DNA of 22,262 bases from the IMG/VR virus record IMGVR_UViG_3300045988_036280, positions 1 to 22,262 of that record; one strand, written 5' to 3'. Below, in pieces: positions 6,192-20,588 of this stretch; position 1 is the first letter of the stretch, and each line of letters opens with the position of its first letter. Below the pieces are notes generated by a model. The model was given only the letters and a program-made list of their open reading frames with translations. It made no database searches and was not told the origin of the DNA. Both the position numbers and the translations under genes were made by a program. This stretch comes from a virus (Duplodnaviria > Heunggongvirae > Uroviricota > Caudoviricetes).

Positions 6192-7486
6192 TGGCATTAA
6201 ATGAAGGTCAACTGGTCACGTATGCTCTGGATGAAATCATCGAAACCATCCAGAACCTGACGCCAATGGCGTCTAAAGTGACAAAATACACCCCTCCGGC
6301 AGAATCCATGCAACGTTCAAGCAACACCGTGTGGATGCCTGTTGAGCAGGAAGCGCCAACTCAGACTGGCTGGGATTTAACTGGCAACGCTACCGGTATT
6401 CTGGAACTGTCCGTGAAATGCAACATGGGCGATCCGGATAACGATTTCTTCGAGCTTCGTGCAGATGACCTGCGTGATGAGCGTTCTTACCGTCGCCGCA
6501 TCCAGGCATCAGCTAAAAAACTGGCGAATAACATTGAGTCAGCAATTGCCAAACAGGCAACTGAAATGGGCTCACTTGTTGTTCACGATACCCGAGCAAT
6601 TGGTCCATCTACTGGCCTGTCTGGCTGGGATTTTGTGTCTGATGCAGAGCGCCTGATGTTCTCCCGTGAGCTAAACCGCGATATGGGCATCAGTTACTTC
6701 CTGAACCCTGACGATTACCGCAAAGCAGGCCGCAACCTGGTAGATGGTGACATCTTCGGGCGCGTTCCTGAAGAAGCGTATCGCAACGGTACTATTCAGC
6801 GTCAGATTGCTGGCTTTGATGAAATTCTTCGCTCACCGAAACTTCCGGCAGTTACCAAGTCAACCGCTACTGGTGTAACTGTTTCTGGTGCGCAGAAGTT
6901 TAAGCCGCAGGCATACACCCTTGATACCGATGGTAACAAAGAGAACGTCGACAACCGTGTTGCAACGGTAACCGTATCCTCCACCACCGGATTTAAGCGC
7001 GGCGACAAAATCAGCTTCACTGGTGTGAAATTCCTGTCTCAGATGGCGAAGAACGTGCTGACTGATGATGCTACTTTCTCAATCACCCGTGTGATCGATG
7101 GTACTCACCTCGAAATCACGCCGAAACCGATTGCACTGGATGACGCGTCACTGACAAAAGAAGAGAAGGCTTACGCTAACGTAAACACCTCTCTTGCTGA
7201 TACCACTCCGGTAAATGTTCTGAACGTGGCAACAACCACCGCTAACGTGTTCTGGGCTGATGACTCAATCCGTCTGCTGTCTCAGCCGATCCCGGTAACT
7301 CATGAACTGTTTGCTGGCATGAAAACTTCTTCCTTCAGCATTCCTGGTATTGGTGTTAACGGCATCTTCGCAACGCAGGGTGATATCAACACTCTGTCTG
7401 GTAAGTGCCGTATTGCTGTGTGGTATTCAGCATGTGCTGTACGACCAGAGGCAATTGGTGTTGGTCTGCCTAACCAGACTGCGTGA
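6191..7486 (+). CDS. 5: Major coat protein, P22 gp5-like (431 aa)
   Basis: Start overlaps the scaffold stop (TAATG); length and position match the P22 coat protein. Confidence 0.93.
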
Positions 7487-12332: not shown

Positions 12333-13721
12333 ATGGCTACTTGGCAAGGAACAAACGGCGGATTGTTGGCTGGTATCGGCGGCGTCAACTCAAACGCTCC
12401 GAGCGTAAATGACATCGGCAATACGCTTCAGCTTATCAGGCAGAACAATGATATTGAGCGTTCAGGCGCTAACAATGTTGGGCTGACTGCTTTGCAAGGC
12501 CTTTCAGGTATTGCGGGGGTGTTTCAGCAGGAAAAGCAGGCTCAGCGGCAGAAAGAATTTCAGCAGGCATACGCTAATGCTTATGCTTCTGGTGATCGCG
12601 GAGCTTTGCGTCAGTTGGCTACTCAATATCCAGACCAGATTGAATCCGTTCGTAAAGGCATGGGATTCATTGATGAAGATCAGCGTAATTCTATCGGCAC
12701 CTTAGCGGCTGGCGCACGCCTTGCGTCATCGTCTCCAGAAGCAATGCAATCATGGCTGCAAAACAACGCCAATGAGCTGGCGCGCGTCGGTGTTGACCCT
12801 AATAACGTTGCTCAGATGTATCAGCAGAATCCTTCAGGATTTGGTGAGTTTGTTGATCACCTTGGAATGGCTGCTCTTGGTCCGATTGATTACTTCAATG
12901 TTCAGGACAAGATGGCTGGTCGTGAGATTGATCGCGGAAAACTTGCAGAGACAATCCGCAGCAATCAGGCTGGCGAGGCGCTAACAGCACGAGGCCAGAA
13001 CATCACGATGCGCGGTCAGGACTTATCTGCTTCTACTGCGCGACGCGGGCAGGATTTGGCAATGCAGCGAGCGTCAACAAGAGGAACCGCTGGGAATGAT
13101 GAGCGTACAGTTCAGTTATCAGATGGCAGAACTGTAACGGTAGGCGGGAAACTTCACGGAGCTGGGGCTAATGCGTTCTACGAAGGCATCGACAACGAGG
13201 GGAATATGGTTCGCGTTCCTGCCAGTTCAATCGCAGCTCCTGCAACATCGTCTGCATCAGCACAAAACTATGCCATGAAGAAGGATATCGACGCGATCGC
13301 AAATGCAGACGCTTCTGCTCTCGATTTCATGACAGGAATGACAGGCGGTGCAGGTAATCCAGCAATTGGTGCTGATGTTCGCAGCCGATTAACAGGAAAA
13401 GAGCAGCGCCAGTTATATAACTCAGCACAACGTATTCAGGGCAGAATGCAGAATCAGGGGGTGGCGGCAGCAAGGGACATGGGTGCCAGTGGTATTAACA
13501 CCGTTGCAGAAGCGAAGATGTATTTTCAGGGGATGCCGCAGGTTGACTATTCAAGCCCGGAGGCTATGCAGCAGTCTATTCGTGAGATTCAGGAATACAC
13601 CAACAATTACAACCAACAATATAACGTTAATGTTGGTAAATCTCAGCGGCAGCAATCTCAACCTGCACAGGTATCACAGCCAGCAGCCAGCAGTAACTTT
13701 TCTTCACTATGGGGTGATTAA
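12333..13721 (+). CDS. 20: Ejection protein gp20-like (462 aa)
   Basis: Position and length match P22 gp20; AAGGGG ribosome-binding site. Confidence 0.8.
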
Positions 13722-15718
13722 TGGCTAAAGCATGGAAAGATGTTATCGCCTCTCCACAGTATCAGGCGTTAGCACCAGAACAAAAAGCGCAGGCTCAGGA
13801 GCAATACTTCAATGAAGTCGTGGCCCCGCAAGCCGGAGAAAATGCAGAGCAGGCTAAGCAAGCTTTCTATGCTGCCTATCCATTGCCATCTGTGCAGCAA
13901 GTGGAGACACAGCAACCAGTAGCACAGCAACAACCACAGCAAAGTGGATTTATGTCTGATCTTGGCGAAGCAGTAAAAGAGACTGGTCGCGGACTGGTGC
14001 AGGCTGGCGTGAACGTGGCAAACATACCTGCATCAGTTGCCGATGCTGTAACAAGCGCGGCGGCTTGGGCTGGCGGTAAACTCGGCATTGGCGATGGTAC
14101 ATATCAACCAGCGCCACGAGTAACAACGCAGGGATTAGAGCAGGACTTTGGCCTTCAGCAAGGCGCGCTGACTCCACAAACGACAGAGGGAAGGGTATTT
14201 GCTGAAGCATTGCCTTACCTCACTACTGCTGGCGTTGAGAGAGCGGCAGCACAGGCACCAACACTTGCTGGTCGAATTGCTCAGGGGGCAACTCGCCTTC
14301 TAGCAGAAAACGCAGTTGGATCACTTGCTGCAAATAGTGCGAAAGATGATGCGGAAGCACTCGCCACCGATTTAGGCGTTGGTGTACTTGCTGGCGGTGC
14401 TATTAACGCTGCTGGACGTGGATTAGGTGCTGCTTATCGTGGCGTTCGTGGTGCTATCGCACCAGAAGCGCAACAGGCTATCAGATTTGCAGAGCGTGAA
14501 GGAGTTCCTCTGCACACCACAGACCTGTTACAACCAACTTCCCGCGTCGGAAAAATGGCGCAGACTACAGCAGAAAATATCCCTCTGGCTGGAACAAGCG
14601 GAATGAGAGCAACGCAACAGGAAGCGAGAAGCCAGTTGGTGCAGAGATTTGCTGATAAATTCGGGGAGTATGATCCAGCGGTTGTTATTGACAGCCTTAA
14701 AGCGAAAACATCAGGAATTCGTCGTGCCGCCGGTAATCGACTGGAGCAGGTTCAGAATGCTATGGCTGGAGTAAACATTCAGCCTGCGCGAGCAATTCAG
14801 CAGATTGATACAGAAATATCTAACCTGCAGAAGCTTGGTAAGGTGGCTGATAACGAGACAATTTCAAAACTTCAGTCATATCGTGATGAGCTTGTTCGCA
14901 ATGCTGGCCCTGAAGGTCCGGTAAATCTGGATTTGAAGCAATTAAGCGACCTGCGCAGTCAGTTCAGAATGGACGTGAAGGGTGAGCGACCAGTGTTACC
15001 AAACCGTTCCGATGCTGCCATTCAGCGCGTTTACAAGGCGATGACCGACGATATCAATGGTGCCATTGGTCAGAATCTTGGCAACGATACTCTCCGTAAA
15101 TATCAGCAGGCCAATGCCGTCTACGCTGACGAAGCGGCGAAACTAAAGAATACCAGGCTGAAGAATGTTCTCATGAAAGGCGACCTGACGCCGGAAGTTG
15201 TCAACAACATGCTATTCAGCAAGAACAAATCGGAAATTAAGACGCTGTATAACTCAGTTGGTCGTGTTGGCAGGGTGCAAATGCGCAATGGCATCATTGG
15301 AAAGGCGATGGAGAAATCTGGCGGATCCCCTGACCAGTTCCTTCGGCAGCTTAACATCCTGCAAAACCAGACTGGCATCACATTTAAGGGGCAGGACGCT
15401 GCTTATCTGAAAGGATTGAAAAATTACCTTCAGTCCACTCAGCAGGCAGCAAAAGCGGCAGTAACAACACCAACAGGGCAGCAAACCATCCCGTTCATTA
15501 TCGGGTATGGGACGGCAATGAACCCGGCGACAACTGGCGCAGCAGTAAGCTACGGACTTCTTACTCGCGCCTATGAGAGCGAACCATTCAGAAATGCAAT
15601 GCTCCGAATGGCAAACACCCCACGCGGATCAACAGCGTTTGAGAAAGCCATGCAGCAGGCGCAAAAGGCCATTAACGCCCTGACTCAGGGTGCCAAGTCT
15701 GATGCGTTGTCAGAATAG
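13721..15718 (+). CDS. 16: Ejection protein gp16-like (665 aa)
   Basis: ATGA overlap with the gp20 stop; last gene of the P22-type ejection-protein trio; longer than P22 gp16 (609 aa as recalled). Confidence 0.8.
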   Translation: MAKAWKDVIASPQYQALAPEQKAQAQEQYFNEVVAPQAGENAEQAKQAFYAAYPLPSVQQVETQQPVAQQQPQQSGFMSDLGEAVKETGRGLVQAGVNVANIPASVADAVTSAAAWAGGKLGIGDGTYQPAPRVTTQGLEQDFGLQQGALTPQTTEGRVFAEALPYLTTAGVERAAAQAPTLAGRIAQGATRLLAENAVGSLAANSAKDDAEALATDLGVGVLAGGAINAAGRGLGAAYRGVRGAIAPEAQQAIRFAEREGVPLHTTDLLQPTSRVGKMAQTTAENIPLAGTSGMRATQQEARSQLVQRFADKFGEYDPAVVIDSLKAKTSGIRRAAGNRLEQVQNAMAGVNIQPARAIQQIDTEISNLQKLGKVADNETISKLQSYRDELVRNAGPEGPVNLDLKQLSDLRSQFRMDVKGERPVLPNRSDAAIQRVYKAMTDDINGAIGQNLGNDTLRKYQQANAVYADEAAKLKNTRLKNVLMKGDLTPEVVNNMLFSKNKSEIKTLYNSVGRVGRVQMRNGIIGKAMEKSGGSPDQFLRQLNILQNQTGITFKGQDAAYLKGLKNYLQSTQQAAKAAVTTPTGQQTIPFIIGYGTAMNPATTGAAVSYGLLTRAYESEPFRNAMLRMANTPRGSTAFEKAMQQAQKAINALTQGAKSDALSE

Positions 15719-15787
15719 CTTCGCAAACACCAGGAACGTGCAAAAACCAAATATGTAGAACGCAATATTCAGCATATCTCTTTGCAT
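15710..15787 (-). CDS. Candidate 25 aa hydrophobic micro-protein (MQRDMLNIAFYIFGFCTFLVFAKLF) downstream of mnt
   Basis: Below the ORF-track length cutoff; found by hand translation. GGAGGA Shine-Dalgarno 3 nt before the ATG; single predicted transmembrane helix; co-directional with mnt; occupies the position of sieA in P22. Confidence 0.2.
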   Translation of the reverse strand: MQRDMLNIAFYIFGFCTFLVFAKLF

Positions 15788-15807
15788 AAATCCTCCGTAA
15801 CTGATGG

Positions 15808-16101
15808 TTAGCTGCTGTCTTTTTTATATAGCTCTTTGAGCGTATCAAAGACAATTTTCTTAACCATATCGGATTGTTGTTCTGCCATACGCTCTGCATC
15901 GTCAATGTAAACTGATGCAGAGTTTTGTTTATCCAGTGATTCTTCAATCGCTGCAATTATCTCTGAGTTCAGAGACCTGTTATTCATCTTCGCACGCTGC
16001 TTAATTTTCGCGTGGAGTTCATGCGGAAGTCTCAAGTGAAACTGCGCCTCGTCGTATTTGCTGTACATCCTTGATGCCTCACCAATTGGGTGGAATGGCA
16101 T
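15808..16101 (-). CDS. mnt: Mnt-like ribbon-helix-helix repressor (97 aa; alternative start at 16068 gives 86 aa)
   Basis: C-terminal DDAERMAEQQSDMVKKIVFDTLKELYKK aligns with P22 Mnt NDAERLADEQSELVKKMVFDTLKDLYKK; N-terminal region aligns with the Mnt DNA-binding strand. Confidence 0.8.
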   Translation of the reverse strand: MPFHPIGEASRMYSKYDEAQFHLRLPHELHAKIKQRAKMNNRSLNSEIIAAIEESLDKQNSASVYIDDAERMAEQQSDMVKKIVFDTLKELYKKDSS

Positions 16102-16189
16102 CGTAACTTACTGGATAAATACTCAATAGTACCATTTCGGTATGCAATCACATCATGGTTGCATCATATCATTCGTCTGGAGCAATGAA
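16102..16189. promoter_or_regulatory. Divergent mnt-tailspike intergenic control region with a candidate operator palindrome
   Basis: Inverted repeat ATGCAA-N11-TTGCAT at 16142-16164 and a smaller TACC-N5-GGTA; position corresponds to the Pant/Pmnt/Omnt region of P22 immI. Confidence 0.3.
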
Positions 16190-18007
16190 ATGTCAGATAT
16201 CACCGCAAATATTGTGGTAAGCATGCCTTCGCAACTCTTCACTATGGCGCGTTCTTTTAAAGCCGTAGCCAATGGCAAAATTTATATCGGAAAAATTGAC
16301 ACTGACCCGGTAAATACTGAAAACCAGATTCAGGTTTATGTAGAGAATGAAGACGGATCTCACGTCCCTGTTTCTCAGCCAATTGTGATCAATGCTGCCG
16401 GATATCCTGTGTACAACGGGCAGATTGCCAAATTTGTAACTGAGCAAGGCCATTCAATGGCTGTATACGATGCGTATGGTGCGCAGCAGTTCTATTTTCC
16501 TAATGTGTTGAAGTACGACCCTGACCAGGGAATTATCAGGTTAAAAGAAGAAATTGCGAAAGATGATGGAGAGAAATATATCGGAATATGCCCTGACGTT
16601 TCTACGCTCAGAACAATTGAGCCATCATTCGTCGGGCAAAATATAACTGTTCGTGGATACTACTCTGACACACCCGGGCTTGGGGGAGGAACGTTTATAG
16701 CCTTTTCCAGTTCTGAAGCTGACGATGGTGTGAATATTTTTGTTACCCCCGGAGGTAAGCGATGGAAGAGAGCAGGAAGCCACATCGATATTCCGGTAGA
16801 GAACGGTGGCATGATGACATCATGTACGGCTGAGCAAAACAGTGAAGCCTTTGAACGCCTGACTGCATGCCTTCCATATGAAGGAGGTACGCTCAGACTC
16901 AATGGATTTTACGATATTAAGTATGGCGCTATCGTGCCTCCACGTGTCACGCTGGAGGGGTGCGGTATGGATTCCTGTGGATTAATTAAAACAGGTAACG
17001 ATATTAAAACCGTTCCGGATCGCATGTGGCAGGGTGTACCACACAGCTTCTCCAAAGACTTTATTGTTGCGGTAGATATGGATAGTGACACATCAGGTGA
17101 TTTAAGCGGGACACAAACAAGAAGCACCAGAATAATTGGATTGAGTATTCTAAATACTGCGCCCAATCCTTGTGATTACGGGGTATATAGCGCTATCAGT
17201 TACAATGTGCGCCTTCAGGACCTGTATATTCATAGGGTGAAAACCGGTTATCGCACTAGTGATAGTTGGTTGCAGACATGGGAAAACATTACTATTCAGG
17301 ATGTCGTTACTGGAGTTAAAATCGAAGCAGGTGGAACTACATATAATTTAAACAATATTTATGTGAAAACATGTTCAGGTGTTGGATTCGATCTTAAAAA
17401 TCCGACATATAGCACAATGACAGGATGTGCTGTGGATTTTGCAAATGGAACTGCATATAAATTCGTGGATTGCACCGGGATTGTGTTAGATGGTTGTGGG
17501 TGCGAAGAAATAACAGGGACACAGATATATGCTCAGGGCTCTAGAATTTGTATTAATGGTTTTAGGGGGGTAAATCCAAAGAAAGGAGATGCAGAATCTT
17601 TTATACTTGATTCATCTGTAATTAATTTAAACTCATCTTATCTTCCTGATTATGTTGGAGGTGGTACAGATAAATATACCAAGATAAATGCGGCGGTGAT
17701 AAATTCGAATAACTCTATATTTCCTGACCATGTAAACAATAAAATTACATGGGGCAGTGTTCAATCCATAATGAATATTCATGATGAAAGAGGTGGATAC
17801 TCAGTAACAGGAAATTCAACGTATACTGTTCTTGGGAGGGTTGAGGGAGGGGTGATTACAATACTCTCTCTACTGCCACCTACGGGAGATGCTAATTTTT
17901 ACCCAATTGGAACAAGGTGGGAGTTACTGTATCCATCGGCTGTAGGTCCGTACAAATGGATTTTGTTAGGGGATAAAATTTGGCATGTTGCAGGATCAAC
18001 ATCGTAA
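16190..18007 (+). CDS. 9: Tailspike: P22 gp9-like head-binding domain joined to an unrelated receptor-binding domain (605 aa)
   Basis: From the ATG at 16190, [42 protein letters not shown]...VLKYDPDQ matches the P22 gp9 N-terminus; beyond about residue 115 the sequence is unrelated and AT-rich. Confidence 0.9.
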
Positions 18008-18014
18008 AAATTAA

Positions 18015-18042
18015 TTGCCAAATTAAAATATACAGCTATTAT
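18015..18042 (+). promoter_or_regulatory. Candidate sigma70 promoter for the acetyltransferase gene (TTGCCA, 16 nt spacer, TATTAT)
   Basis: -35 at 18015-18020 and -10 at 18037-18042, in the tailspike-oac intergenic region. Confidence 0.35.
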
Positions 18043-18063
18043 TTTGCACAATACTATGCATAG

Positions 18064-19047
18064 GTGCAAAAAATGGATGAGAAAGTAATCAATATTAGGG
18101 CCGTGGCTGCTATTATGGTTGTAGTTCTTCATGTTAATTCACAGTATTTTCATGATGTTACAAGCTACTGGACTGTTTTCGCTTTGATTGGTTCAGCAAT
18201 GCGGCCCTGCGTGCCTATTTTTATAATGATTTCAGGGTATTTATTGATAGGAAGAGTTGGCAGTTCAATTGATTTTATGAAGAGAAGAATATCAAGACTT
18301 CTTCCTCCAATATTATTTTGGGGGGTGTTTTATGTTTTTTTTGTATCAGTTGTTGGAAACGCACAAGTTTCAATAAATTCACTCATATCAATATTAATTG
18401 ATCCTCCAATGTTTCATTTATGGTATCTTTATTTGATTGTTGGCGTTTATCTCATGATGCCTATTTTATCCTCTTGGTATTTGTCGGCGTCATTTGGTGA
18501 TAAGATTTTTTATATTTCGCTTTGGTTTGCATGCCTGCTTGTTGCTCAGTTTGGTCTTGGTGTTGAAATTATAAATAGATATTATCTTGGTCAATTTTCA
18601 ACATACTCGTTTTATTTAATAGTGGGTGCTTTTGTTAAGGAGGTTTCATTTAAGTGCAATGTAAGATGGTCTGTTCCGAGCATGGTTTATATTCTAATTA
18701 CATTACTAATAACAACTCTTACGATTTATGACTGTTATAATAATGGAGCGCCGTCAGAGAAGTACTATGAATACACAAATCCAATGGTTGTTCTTCAATC
18801 AATATTTTTATTCATGGCGTTAATTAAGCTTAATAAATCAAATTGGTTTACAAAAGTTGTTTCAAATTATTCACTTGGAGTTTATTGTGTTCATGTTGCG
18901 ATAATATTACTAATATTCCCTACAATAAAGACAACAATAGATAATGCATTCATTTCATACTTTGCATCTATTTCTTTAGTTCTGATCTCATCAGTTATAA
19001 TTAGCTCAATTATCAGATTGGTTCCTTTTATAAAAAGTGCATCGTGA
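18064..19047 (+). CDS. oac: Acyltransferase family 3 integral membrane protein, O-antigen acetyltransferase (Oac-like), about 325 aa
   Basis: Many predicted transmembrane segments; N-terminal IRAVAAIMVVVLHV motif (conserved R and H of acyltransferase_3); AT-rich; sits between tailspike and attP as oac does in Sf6. Probable start is the ATG at 18073. Confidence 0.8.
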   Translation: MQKMDEKVINIRAVAAIMVVVLHVNSQYFHDVTSYWTVFALIGSAMRPCVPIFIMISGYLLIGRVGSSIDFMKRRISRLLPPILFWGVFYVFFVSVVGNAQVSINSLISILIDPPMFHLWYLYLIVGVYLMMPILSSWYLSASFGDKIFYISLWFACLLVAQFGLGVEIINRYYLGQFSTYSFYLIVGAFVKEVSFKCNVRWSVPSMVYILITLLITTLTIYDCYNNGAPSEKYYEYTNPMVVLQSIFLFMALIKLNKSNWFTKVVSNYSLGVYCVHVAIILLIFPTIKTTIDNAFISYFASISLVLISSVIISSIIRLVPFIKSAS

Positions 19048-19129
19048 GTGCTTTAGTTGCATGAGACAAAACTGAGACACAGAAAGCTTTGCACTGGATT
19101 GCAAGGCTTTGTGCTCTTCGATAGTGGTT

Positions 19130-19152
19130 AAGGTGGATCACTCCACCTTTTT
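19130..19152 (+). terminator. Intrinsic terminator downstream of the acetyltransferase gene
   Basis: 8 bp stem aaggtgga/tccacctt with loop tcac, followed by a T-run. Confidence 0.55.
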
Positions 19153-19243
19153 ATCAATCCAGTCCGCCCACCATTGCATCATTTCTCTGCGCTTATCGAG
19201 ATACTGAGCATGGTTGTAAATTCAGATAACCCAGTATGTTGAC

Positions 19244-19283
19244 AAAAAATTAGCGCAAGAAGACAAAAATCACCTTGCGCTAA
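19244..19283 (-). terminator. Lambda tI/sib-like hairpin (int retroregulation element and terminator for leftward transcripts)
   Basis: 10 bp inverted repeat ttagcgcaag/cttgcgctaa (19250-19259 with 19274-19283) with a 14 nt loop, followed on the minus strand by a T-run (19244-19249); matches the lambda sib region as recalled. Confidence 0.5.
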
Positions 19284-19520
19284 TGCTCTGCTACAGGTCA
19301 CTAATACTATCTAAGTAGTTGATTCATAGTGACTGGATATGTTGTGTTTTGTCGCATTATGTAGTCTATTTTTTAGACTAAAGATATTGTAATGCATTGA
19401 TATTAATGGTTTTTAATGTTTCACGTTCAGCTTTTTTATACTAAGTTGGCATTATAAAAAAGCATTGCTTATCAATTTGTTGCAACGAACAGGTCACTAT
19501 CAGTCAAAATAAAATCATTA
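19280..19520. other. attP: Lambda-type attP (P arm, 15 bp core at 19430-19444, P' arm)
   Basis: Exact lambda core GCTTTTTTATACTAA; P' arm AGTTGGCATTATAAAAAAGCATTGCTTATCAATTTGTTGCAACGAACAGGTCACTATCAGTCAAAATAAAATCATTATTTG matches lambda as recalled; arm-type sites CAGGTCACTAAT and CAGGTCACTAT; P arm slightly diverged from lambda. Confidence 0.85.
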
Positions 19521-20588
19521 TTTGATTTCAATTTTGTCCCACTCCCTGCCTCTGTCATCACGATACTGTGATGCCATGGTGTCCGACTTATGCCCGAGAA
19601 GATGTTGAGCAAACTTATCGCTTATCTGCTTCTCATAGAGTCTTGCAGACAAACTGCGCAACTCGTGAAAGGTAGGCGGATCCCCTTCGAAGGAAAGACC
19701 TGATGCTTTTCGTGCGCGCATAAAATACCTTGATACTGTGCCGGATGAAAGCGGTTCACGACGAGTAGATGCAATTATGGTTTCTCCGCCAAGAATCTCT
19801 TTGCATTTATCAAGTGTTTCCTTCATTGATATCCCGAGAGCATCAACATGCAATGCTGTTGGGATGGCAATTTTTACGCCTGTTTTGCTTTGCTCGACAT
19901 AAAGATATCCATCTACGATATCAGACCACTTCATTTCGCATAAATCACCAACTCGTTGCCCGGTAACAACAGCCAGTTCCATTGCAAGTCTGAGCCAACA
20001 TGGTGATGATTCTGCTGCTTGATAAATTTTCAGGTATTCGTCAGCTGTAAGTCTTGATCTCCTTACCTCTGATTTTGCTGCGCGAGTGGCAGCGACCGGG
20101 TTTGTTGTTATATGGCCTTCAGCTATTGCCTCTCGGAATGCATCGCTCAGTGTTGATCTGATTAACTTGGCTGACGCCGCCTTGCCATCGTCTATGTATC
20201 CATTGAGCATTGCCGCAATTTCTTTTGTGGTGATGTCTTCAAGTGGAGCATCAGGCAGACCCCTCCTTATTGCTTTAATTTTGCTCATGTAATTTATGAG
20301 TGTCTTCTGCTTGATTCCTCTGCTGGCGAGGATTTTTTCGTAGCGATCAAGCCATGAATGTAACGTAACAGAATTATCACTGTTGATTCTTGCTGTCAGA
20401 GGCTTGTGTTTGGGTCCTGAGAATAACTCAATGTTGGCCTGTATAGCTTCAGTGATTGCTATCCTTCTGTCTCTGCCTAATCCGAACTCTTTACCCGTCC
20501 TTGGGTCCCTGTAGCAGTAATATCCATTGTTTCTTATATAAAGATTAGGGGGTAAATCCCGGCGCTCATGACTTCGCCTTCTTCCCAT
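19518..20588 (-). CDS. int: Lambda integrase (tyrosine recombinase, 356 aa)
   Basis: MGRRRSHERRDLPPNLYIRNNGYYCYRDPRTGKEFGLGRDRR...DKIEIK is essentially lambda Int as recalled; stop codon lies in the P' arm. Confidence 0.97.
   Translation of the reverse strand: MGRRRSHERRDLPPNLYIRNNGYYCYRDPRTGKEFGLGRDRRIAITEAIQANIELFSGPKHKPLTARINSDNSVTLHSWLDRYEKILASRGIKQKTLINYMSKIKAIRRGLPDAPLEDITTKEIAAMLNGYIDDGKAASAKLIRSTLSDAFREAIAEGHITTNPVAATRAAKSEVRRSRLTADEYLKIYQAAESSPCWLRLAMELAVVTGQRVGDLCEMKWSDIVDGYLYVEQSKTGVKIAIPTALHVDALGISMKETLDKCKEILGGETIIASTRREPLSSGTVSRYFMRARKASGLSFEGDPPTFHELRSLSARLYEKQISDKFAQHLLGHKSDTMASQYRDDRGREWDKIEIK

Follow-up and report, generated by a model that had tools for sequence, protein, structure and literature searches.

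The 22,262-nt sequence IMGVR_UViG_3300045988_036280, called the window hereafter, is the excised (attP) or virion form of a temperate P22-like phage (Lederbergvirus) that lysogenises Escherichia coli. According to open reading frames (ORFs) and Pfam matches, the end of its late operon features a gp16-type gene, mnt on the minus strand, the tailspike gene, an Acyl_transf_3 gene, int and an Xis-like ORF, in this order. The region from mnt to the acyltransferase gene is probably the receptor and lysogenic-conversion end of the phage, in which the receptor part of the tailspike and the acyltransferase make a matched block, accompanied by a lone Mnt repressor that does not serve as a switch. The elements of the block are listed here.

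16190-18007, plus strand: tailspike gene, 605 aa, with the Shine-Dalgarno motif GGAG at 16179-16182
16667-19097, plus strand: mobile block of 2,431 bp, holding tailspike aa ~160-605, a 65-bp spacer with a candidate promoter, the acyltransferase gene and 50 bp beyond it
17511-19058, plus strand: sub-block, tailspike aa ~400-605 plus acyltransferase gene, which differs from E. coli VE-T9 and is the lowest-GC part
18015-18042, plus strand: candidate sigma70 promoter TTGCCA-16-TATTAT, the best in 15600-19600
18043-18071, plus strand: inverted repeat TTTTGCAC-N13-GTGCAAAA, perfect over 8 bp, the 3' arm of which covers the Shine-Dalgarno motif AGGTG (18062-18066)
18073-19047, plus strand: AT3-only membrane acyltransferase of 324 aa, a putative O-antigen O-acetyltransferase (PF01757, 2.7e-40)

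A receptor/acyltransferase block in different phages

The block at 16667-19097 shares 96.6-97.2% DNA identity with the loci L102, L103 and L018. All three are phiV10-like, L102 and L103 being Uetakevirus prophages; over the 7.7 kb preceding the block, identity to phiV10 is 95.5%. The 700-aa tailspikes of L102 and L103 (P0002, P0003) join this receptor domain to another N-terminal anchor, protein identity being ~99% from aa ~176, and are followed by the same 324-aa acyltransferase, then by holin, endolysin and Rz. The block occupies the place of the O157 receptor domain and oac of phiV10. Among P22-like phages the conserved segment spans 16176-19221, starting 14 bp before the tailspike start codon, and is 98-99% identical in three backbones: that of the window (lambda-att, lone mnt), prophages with IntS/argW and a P63C-domain moron (L002, L003), and a lambda-att prophage with mnt-arc-ant (L005).

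Receptor part and acyltransferase also diverge together. A diverged copy in L108 has a tailspike 82% and an acyltransferase 77% identical to those of the window, and a Buttiauxella remnant at sbcB (L106) retains a tailspike fragment (aa 390-605) at 65% and the acyltransferase at 56%. A 44% identical acyltransferase homolog of Xenorhabdus, the sole one in species-representative genomes, resides in the same place, at one end of a P22-like prophage that has degraded. The 349-aa protein encoded upstream of it was considered as a tailspike relative and discarded, as no similarity was observed. The exact acyltransferase sequence is found on 188 contigs; the lineage is sparse, being made by E. coli sequences, the 77% copy and the Buttiauxella and Xenorhabdus homologs, after which identities are <=34%.

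A smaller unit is revealed by E. coli VE-T9. Its tailspike is 100% identical to that of the window over aa 116-398, then ~45%, and its acyltransferase is 27% identical and lies on the opposite strand; the flanks at 16238-17510 and 19059-19221 are conserved. The second-type acyltransferase is found behind the sister tailspikes of both VE-T9 and P0010, and gtrABC behind those of P0014 and APEC-O117H42. The sister tailspikes seem to make up a receptor-domain family, each member with an O-antigen-modifying module, swapped by recombination in conserved flanks. A preliminary description of this DNA had proposed a jointly acquired unit joined to the head-binding domain. Recurrence and divergence of the two genes support the view that receptor domain and acyltransferase behave as one transferable unit, but its left edge lies at aa ~160-175, and not at the end of the head-binding domain. 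Support for the unit stems from comparison more than from composition.

The low-GC tract of the region, noticed earlier, is real. GC content is 0.438 in the head-binding domain, 0.463 in 16535-17089, 0.39 in 17090-18007 and 0.321 in the acyltransferase gene, and 17100-19050 is the only stretch below 40% GC in the window, besides the adjoining attP arm. The onset lies, however, ~560 bp right of the head-binding boundary (16535): the remainder of the tailspike is unrelated to P22 in sequence, as had been stated, but turns AT-rich at ~17100 and not at that boundary. The similar composition attributed to the tailspike and acyltransferase genes is observed at third codon positions (GC3 of 0.274 in the last third of the tailspike and 0.255 in the acyltransferase), but not in overall GC (0.39 vs 0.321). 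Since both GC3 values are far from that of gp16 (0.443), the bias is not solely an amino-acid effect of a membrane protein. GC change-points were also tried as cassette edges, and rejected: the best two-boundary fit, 17275 and 18215, matches no recombination junction.

One sister tailspike has an unusual location. In APEC-O117H42 (L104, NZ_CP172331.1 1543862-1548616) a tailspike 69% identical to that of the window, and nearly identical to ~aa 300, lacks the first 11 codons and any upstream phage genes, resides beside a truncated LysR-family gene near dsdX, and is followed by gtrC, gtrB and gtrA. This arrangement resembles a prophage end left stranded. A 699-aa relative of phiV10 type (P0029) is present in this genome as well.

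Products, signals and proposed role of the block

The tailspike is a three-part mosaic, made by a P22-type head-binding domain, a beta-helix depolymerase and a C-terminal third of separate origin. The head-binding domain has been kept in full, in line with the preliminary description: PF09008 matches aa 1-113 over profile positions 1-113 of 113 (5.1e-65), and the structures matching the N-terminus are those of Sf6 (7sg7, aa 1-124, 1e-64) and P22 (aa 1-148). An AlphaFold2 model of aa 111-605, based on 28 homologs (mean pLDDT 88.3, pTM 0.84), predicts a neck helix, a small beta domain, a long right-handed beta-helix and a C-terminal beta domain. The search for structural homologs that had been proposed for the C-terminal domain returned beta-helix tailspike depolymerase folds as top matches in the PDB. 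Foldseek placed first gp42 of Acinetobacter phage AS12 (6eu4, E 6e-18), and retrieved CBA120 TSP2, which is O157-specific (E 2.5e-12), Klebsiella K2 depolymerases and, lower down, the P22 tailspike (2xc1, E 2.9e-6). The receptor part, unrelated to P22 in sequence, has therefore the same kind of fold. Domain profiles of the beta-helix are a weak PF13229 and, in database records, PF27114. The closest tailspikes in isolated phages, 55% identical, are those of the ~157-kb Salmonella phages STML-13-1 and pSC20. The beta-helix domain would bind, and probably cleave, a surface polysaccharide, most likely an O-antigen.

The AT3 domain of the acyltransferase is full-length (PF01757 profile positions 6-323 of 326) and lacks an SGNH extension, and hydrophobic segments are spread over the whole length of the protein. 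AT3 carbohydrate acetyltransferases feature the motifs R/K-X10-H in the first transmembrane helix (TMH1), FFXISG in TMH2 and RXXR after TMH2 (PMC7448272); the corresponding R9-X10-H20, F50-I-M-I-S-G55 and R72-I-S-R75 are present in the window protein. The best PHROG is 3333, 'O-acetyltransferase' (6e-24). As for the Oac families, against which a search had been suggested, the nearest phage homolog is phiV10 Oac, at just 28% identity; Sf6 Oac was not detected with the window acyltransferase at E<=1e-3.

The candidate sigma70 promoter attributed to the acyltransferase gene was found again at 18015-18042, where it matches the consensus at 10/12 positions. It lies inside the mobile block, and is retained in the 77%-diverged L108 as TTGCCA / TATCAT. 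The adjacent hairpin at 18043-18071 has an RNA fold of -10.3 kcal/mol (z -2.6), and its arms are invariant in L108, where 3-4 substitutions reside in the loop. Because the predicted start of transcripts from the promoter falls in the 5' arm, the hairpin would form only in read-through late transcripts. It is conceivable, though doubtful, that it hides the ribosome binding site in read-through mRNA, and not in promoter mRNA, which would make the enzyme a lysogen-only product.

The role proposed for the two genes is as follows. The head-binding domain would dock the tailspike on the tail, and the beta-helix domain would bind and probably cleave surface polysaccharide. Its own promoter would probably drive synthesis of the acyltransferase in the lysogen, and the enzyme would probably move acetyl from cytoplasmic acetyl-CoA onto the polysaccharide recognised by the tailspike itself. 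The modification gene lies between tailspike and attP/int, and in the same position in E. coli lysogens; prophage modification genes, such as gtrA and gtrC of BTP1, are highly expressed in the lysogen (PMC7067206). By analogy with Oac of Sf6, for which exclusion has been shown, and Oac of phiV10, for which it is annotated, acetylated lysogens and debris would no longer adsorb phages with this tailspike, which would amount to serotype conversion with superinfection exclusion. Recognition and modification of the receptor would make a matched pair, and for this reason the receptor domain and the acyltransferase would be inherited together and exchanged as a single block. Recombination in the N-terminal part of the tailspike at the left, and in the late-operon end or integrase region at the right, would carry the block from one P22-like backbone to another, and also from P22-like to phiV10-like phages or back.

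Several observations weigh against this reading. AT3-only enzymes also acetylate the enterobacterial common antigen, and a surface glycan of another kind could serve as receptor. PHROG 8280, the best one for the tailspike (E 1e-109), bears the label 'tail spike protein with colonic acid degradation activity', which leaves room for a non-O-antigen receptor. The sole serotype clue is one strain label, O117:H42, plus the related tailspikes in APEC-O117H42, and the review of E. coli O-antigens holds no O-acetyl information for O117 or O107. The acyltransferase is <=28% identical to any characterised phage Oac, and searches of solved structures returned spurious transmembrane matches and no solved homolog. 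The promoter at 18015-18042 is a consensus match only, and promoter-like sites in the region are fewer than in shuffled sequences (11 vs a mean of 14.7). The GC drop begins ~430 bp right of the left edge of the block, hence composition does not delimit the unit. Finally, co-transfer could reflect adjacency alone, not function.

This last point is at the core of an explanation that we regard as unlikely, according to which linkage is only physical, and the acyltransferase is a moron that modifies a non-receptor glycan or benefits the host, for example in immune evasion. Junctions do fall in conserved sequence and not at domain borders (aa ~160-175, aa ~400, 19059-19221), substrates of AT3-only enzymes are varied (PMC9558356), and homologs of phiV10 Oac are annotated yiaH in two records. 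Yet the two genes remain paired at identities as low as 65/56%, in different genera and in two phage genera, an O-antigen modification module is located behind every sister tailspike examined, and the modified glycan is the phage receptor in the characterised analogues (phiV10 annotation; PMC10408124). These data favour a matched receptor/acyltransferase block. A further reading, conceivable but doubtful, is that the acyltransferase and the final ~200 residues of the tailspike are co-adapted as a specificity pair, in which the C-terminal part reads the very sugar position acetylated by the partner enzyme. If so, a 1.5-kb swap (17511-19058) would give an otherwise identical tailspike a new 'receptor immunity type', a behaviour resembling that of repressor/operator pairs in immunity.

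The mnt gene and the mnt-tailspike spacer

15808-16068, minus strand: mnt, encoding an 86-aa Mnt-type ribbon-helix-helix repressor (Pfam, alignment to P22 Mnt)
16100-16126, minus strand: possible Pmnt, TTGAGT (16126-16121), 15-nt spacer, TACGAT (16105-16100), by positional homology to P22 Pmnt
16128-16143, strand not assigned: candidate Mnt operator AGTACCATTTCGGTAT (TACC-N5-GGTA), at the P22 Omnt-homologous position, right after a conserved CTCAAT

ORFs and Pfam matches agree with the earlier statement that only an Mnt homolog remains between the gp16 homolog (end 15718) and the tailspike (16190); arc, ant and sar, of which the full set is present in L005 and P22, are not in the ORF list between these positions. 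The longest mnt ORF measures 97 aa (ATG at 16101), and a start at 16068 is favoured, which aligns with P22 Mnt and is used by database gene calls and RefSeq. The 88-bp intergenic region previously described holds for the longest ORF, but measures 121 bp with the favoured start. Both domains of the repressor are present: the N-terminal ribbon-helix-helix (PF03869 Arc, 3.1e-14, residues 18-59 of the 97-aa ORF), which aligns over the beta-strand FxxRxP, and the C-terminal tetramerisation helix (PF11423 Repressor_Mnt, 3.4e-14, profile positions 3-28 of 28). The motif DAER...VKKxVFDTLKxLYKK is invariant across 5 aligned Mnt sequences. Identity to P22 Mnt is 47%, and the predicted DNA-reading residues are Q/H/R in place of H6/N8/R10, which is consistent with a different operator. 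The allele is found at 94-100% aa identity in 80 IMG/VR loci. Variants of the 'ant moron' that hold mnt only are known from ST64T, ST104 and Para1 (PMC2629481), and the lone mnt of the window is of this kind.

Some records name their Mnt homolog 'putative chromosome segregation ATPase' or 'partition protein ATPase' (Sf101 orf14 in L020, P22 RefSeq in L021, PHROG 795). These labels are a propagated mis-annotation of an 83-97-aa ribbon-helix-helix repressor.

Spacers were compared in 78/80 of the IMG/VR loci, five further loci and the window, each having mnt and the head-binding domain. The gap between mnt and tailspike is exactly 121 nt in 65 members of this set and reaches at most 728 nt; no member has room for arc-ant. 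The site equivalent to Omnt is retained in 32/32 distinct spacer variants, and is a perfect TACCGTTTCGGTA in L030, L084 and L085. The annotated mnt operator of P22 reads CTCAAT-AGGTCCACGGTGGACCT, and the corresponding sequence of phage 720R6, which likewise has a lone mnt beside the tailspike, reads CTCAAT-AAGACCACAGTGGTCT. A second copy of the candidate operator was sought in the window, and only a 3-mismatch match at 6778, within chance, was retrieved. In the annotated P22 layout Pant, CTCAAT and Omnt follow each other in order, and Pmnt (TTGAGA-17-TATCAT) has the opposite direction. The candidate Pmnt of the window was read by eye, and is not listed by the sigma70 scan. Positions matching the -35 and -10 hexamers of P22 Pant (TTGACA...TATATT) read GAATGG / TAAATA. 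From these comparisons we conclude that the spacer would descend from the Pmnt/Omnt region, that Pant would have been lost, and that the tailspike would be read from the late operon. The lone Mnt most likely still represses, and would autoregulate its synthesis through the Omnt-like site at 16128-16143. Autoregulation is a default inference, to which two details are adverse: the Omnt-like site is an imperfect 4-5-4 palindrome (16130-16142), and the spacer of the candidate Pmnt is short (15 nt).

The preliminary description had suggested a different function for Mnt, the orphan repressor being placed to bind an ATGCAA-N11-TTGCAT palindrome and so control a Pant-like promoter for the tailspike. 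Such a switch, perhaps extending to the acyltransferase, is improbable. It is true that mnt lies immediately upstream of the tailspike gene, in divergent orientation, that the spacer derives from the P22 Pmnt/Omnt/Pant region with CTCAAT and a palindrome conserved, and that the P22 ant moron may affect late transcription reaching the tailspike gene (PMC2629481). The promoter scan, however, detected no plus-strand sigma70-like site in 16069-16189, and the Pant hexamer positions are degenerate. The palindrome is present exactly at 16142-16164, as reported, but is not beyond chance, as a 6-bp inverted repeat with a 3-20 nt gap turns up in 42.5% of dinucleotide-shuffled versions of the spacer. It sits downstream of the Omnt-equivalent site, and is replaced by unrelated DNA in L030, L069, L084 and L085, which have the same mnt allele, and in 720R6. 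Being within chance, off the Omnt-homologous position and unlinked to the mnt allele, it was rejected as Mnt operator, and control of a Pant-like promoter through it is not supported. As RNA, the palindrome could form a 9-bp hairpin in the tailspike leader; pairing is kept in 5/6 natural stem variants, with 0 compensatory changes and no signal over controls.

About as improbable is that the mnt locus acts mainly by its transcript, antisense to the late transcript from gp16 to tailspike, or by a bound roadblock. In the manner of STnc6030 of the P22-like prophage BTP1, antisense mnt RNA in the lysogen could interfere with related phages that superinfect. The position of the locus matches the BTP1 case, and the scan found a leftward promoter-like site at 16196-16168 and no minus-strand terminator-like site after mnt. 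Mnt is, however, intact in both domains and conserved in the 80 loci, and conservation of the protein points to selection on the protein. A roadblock or an STnc6030-like antisense role is a possibility next to autoregulation by the lone Mnt. That the orphan mnt is a decaying remnant of an arc-ant deletion, without current role, is very improbable: the same block is associated with a full P22-type mnt-arc-ant in L005 and degraded ant morons have been described (PMC2629481), but no compared locus has room for arc-ant, ORF and Omnt-like site are conserved, and the window allele is only 47% identical to the L005/P22 type, which makes it a different allele, not a leftover.

Other features of the spacer were noted. 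The leftward promoter-like sequence CTGACA-17-AATGAT (16196-16168, minus strand) overlaps the tailspike start codon; a transcript starting there would be antisense to the tailspike leader, then to mnt and possibly to the end of gp16, and recalls BTP1 STnc6030. A second inverted repeat, GATGCC-N18-GGCATC with a nested CACC-AATTG-GGTG, marks the mnt leader (16073-16102) within the extension of the 97-aa ORF, and GATGCC...GGCATC is found also in 720R6. The spacer has grown to 654-728 nt in ~12 loci (L001 3501-3959; L025-L027, L037, L048, L050, L064, L072, L083, L098). The insert in the VE-T9 spacer encodes an HNH endonuclease, on the minus strand.

Related phages and flanking modules

The overall arrangement is already known from Sf6, Sf101 and phiV10, and mnt-only morons, such as those of ST64T and ST104, are already published. 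The gene order of Sf6 is tailspike (gene 14), oac and int/attP. Sf6 is P22-like, its head-binding domain is closely related to that of the window, and RXXR, essential in Oac, is found also in the window acyltransferase; unlike the window, Sf6 is without any ant moron (PMC2629481). Sf101 (KJ832078) shares with the window the backbone and, in identical order, a gp16-type gene, the same mnt allele, a tailspike, an AT3 O-acyltransferase and an integrase region (PMC4159516). The mnt proteins are 97% identical, as is the DNA from mnt to the head-binding domain, palindrome included. Its receptor domain is in contrast unrelated, its OacB is a different AT3 enzyme encoded on the opposite strand, and the phage integrates at sbcB, not at lambda attB. 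OacB of Sf101 is an experimentally established serotype-converting enzyme (PMC4159516, PMC8952252). In phiV10, as in the window, a gene for an AT3 O-acetyltransferase comes right after that of the tailspike, and according to its annotation the enzyme acetylates the O-antigen of the host and acts in superinfection immunity; this phage belongs to another genus and has another tailspike anchor, and both its O157 domain and its opposite-strand oac are unrelated in sequence to the window genes. The immI region of P22 resembles the window in its location between genes 16 and 9, in the leftward mnt and in the layout of CTCAAT and palindrome at Pmnt/Omnt. The window differs because it is without arc, sar, ant, sieA or a recognisable Pant, and because recognition residues of Mnt and operator are not the same.

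Tailspikes of P22-like phages are known to combine a head-binding domain with a variable receptor domain (PMC2629481), and receptor domains are exchanged among Lederberg-, Uetake- and Kutterviruses, with conservation of the N-terminal anchor (PMC10408124). The window receptor domain is found in three settings, P22-like phages, phiV10-like phages and, at 55% identity, the ~157-kb Salmonella phages. The cited work on exchange deals with the receptor-binding protein by itself and raises the modification gene as no more than a caveat; in the present case that gene is part of what is transferred. What is new is that receptor part and acyltransferase appear to travel as one 2.4-kb block between unrelated phage types. 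An explicit prior statement of co-transfer and co-divergence of receptor domain and acyltransferase was not found in the literature, and follows from known facts; for specialists of P22-like phages nothing here is surprising. The data add an uncharacterised tailspike/O-acetyltransferase pair to the serotype-converting modules of E. coli prophages, and are of relevance for O-antigen typing, host-range prediction from prophage tailspikes, and tailspike or tailocin engineering. As receptor domain and masking gene are exchanged together, prediction of the serogroup from a prophage tailspike should include the downstream gene.

Megablast places the left part of the window nearest to IME10, Sf101 and Sf6. 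No INPHARED record covers >=80% of 15700-19550, nor does any of the complete RefSeq E. coli genomes (0/5,426); the block was located only through an exact-protein index. Several assemblies, including L002, L004 and L005, carry tailspike DNA 98-100% identical to that of the window, and yet list no tailspike gene. Other gene calls over such DNA are only 346-398-aa 'hypothetical protein' entries (clusters P0006, P0012).

Features at either side of the genes discussed above are the following.

13721-15718: gp16-type ejection protein gene (ORF and Pfam)
19130-19155, strand not assigned: terminator-like hairpin AAGGTGGA-TCAC-TCCACCTT, then TTTAT (hairpin plus T-run)
19141-19221, minus strand: remnant of an integrase gene of IntS type, comprising its last 27 codons; the stop codon (19138-19140) lies in the loop of the terminator hairpin
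19430-19444: lambda-type attP core GCTTTTTTATACTAA, intact, with lambda-like arms at both sides
19518-20588, minus strand: lambda/434-type int (Pfam Arm-DNA-bind_1, of lambda type, and Phage_integrase domains)

Contigs L004, L007 and L010-L015, assigned to E. coli by their names, encode exactly the same tailspike and acyltransferase, and match the window at 100% identity from 13001 through 19448, where they enter ybhB-bioA, the site of lambda attB. The window is for this reason regarded as the excised or virion form of the phage.

The hairpin at 19130-19155 had been viewed as the own terminator of the acyltransferase gene. It belongs instead to the backbone: it lies beyond 19097, where the block in common with phiV10-like phages ends, and within the segment 19059-19221, common to VE-T9, in which the acyltransferase gene is reversed, and to the IntS-type prophages L002 and L003, and not found in phiV10-like loci. 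Homology to IntS-type prophages ends at 19221, and tblastn with IntS of L002 shows that residues 359-385 are 100% identical in the window. This relic indicates that the block formerly adjoined an IntS-type integrase, and that the lambda attP-int module was joined at 19221/19222. As read from these junctions, the lambda int-attP module has replaced an IntS/argW module.

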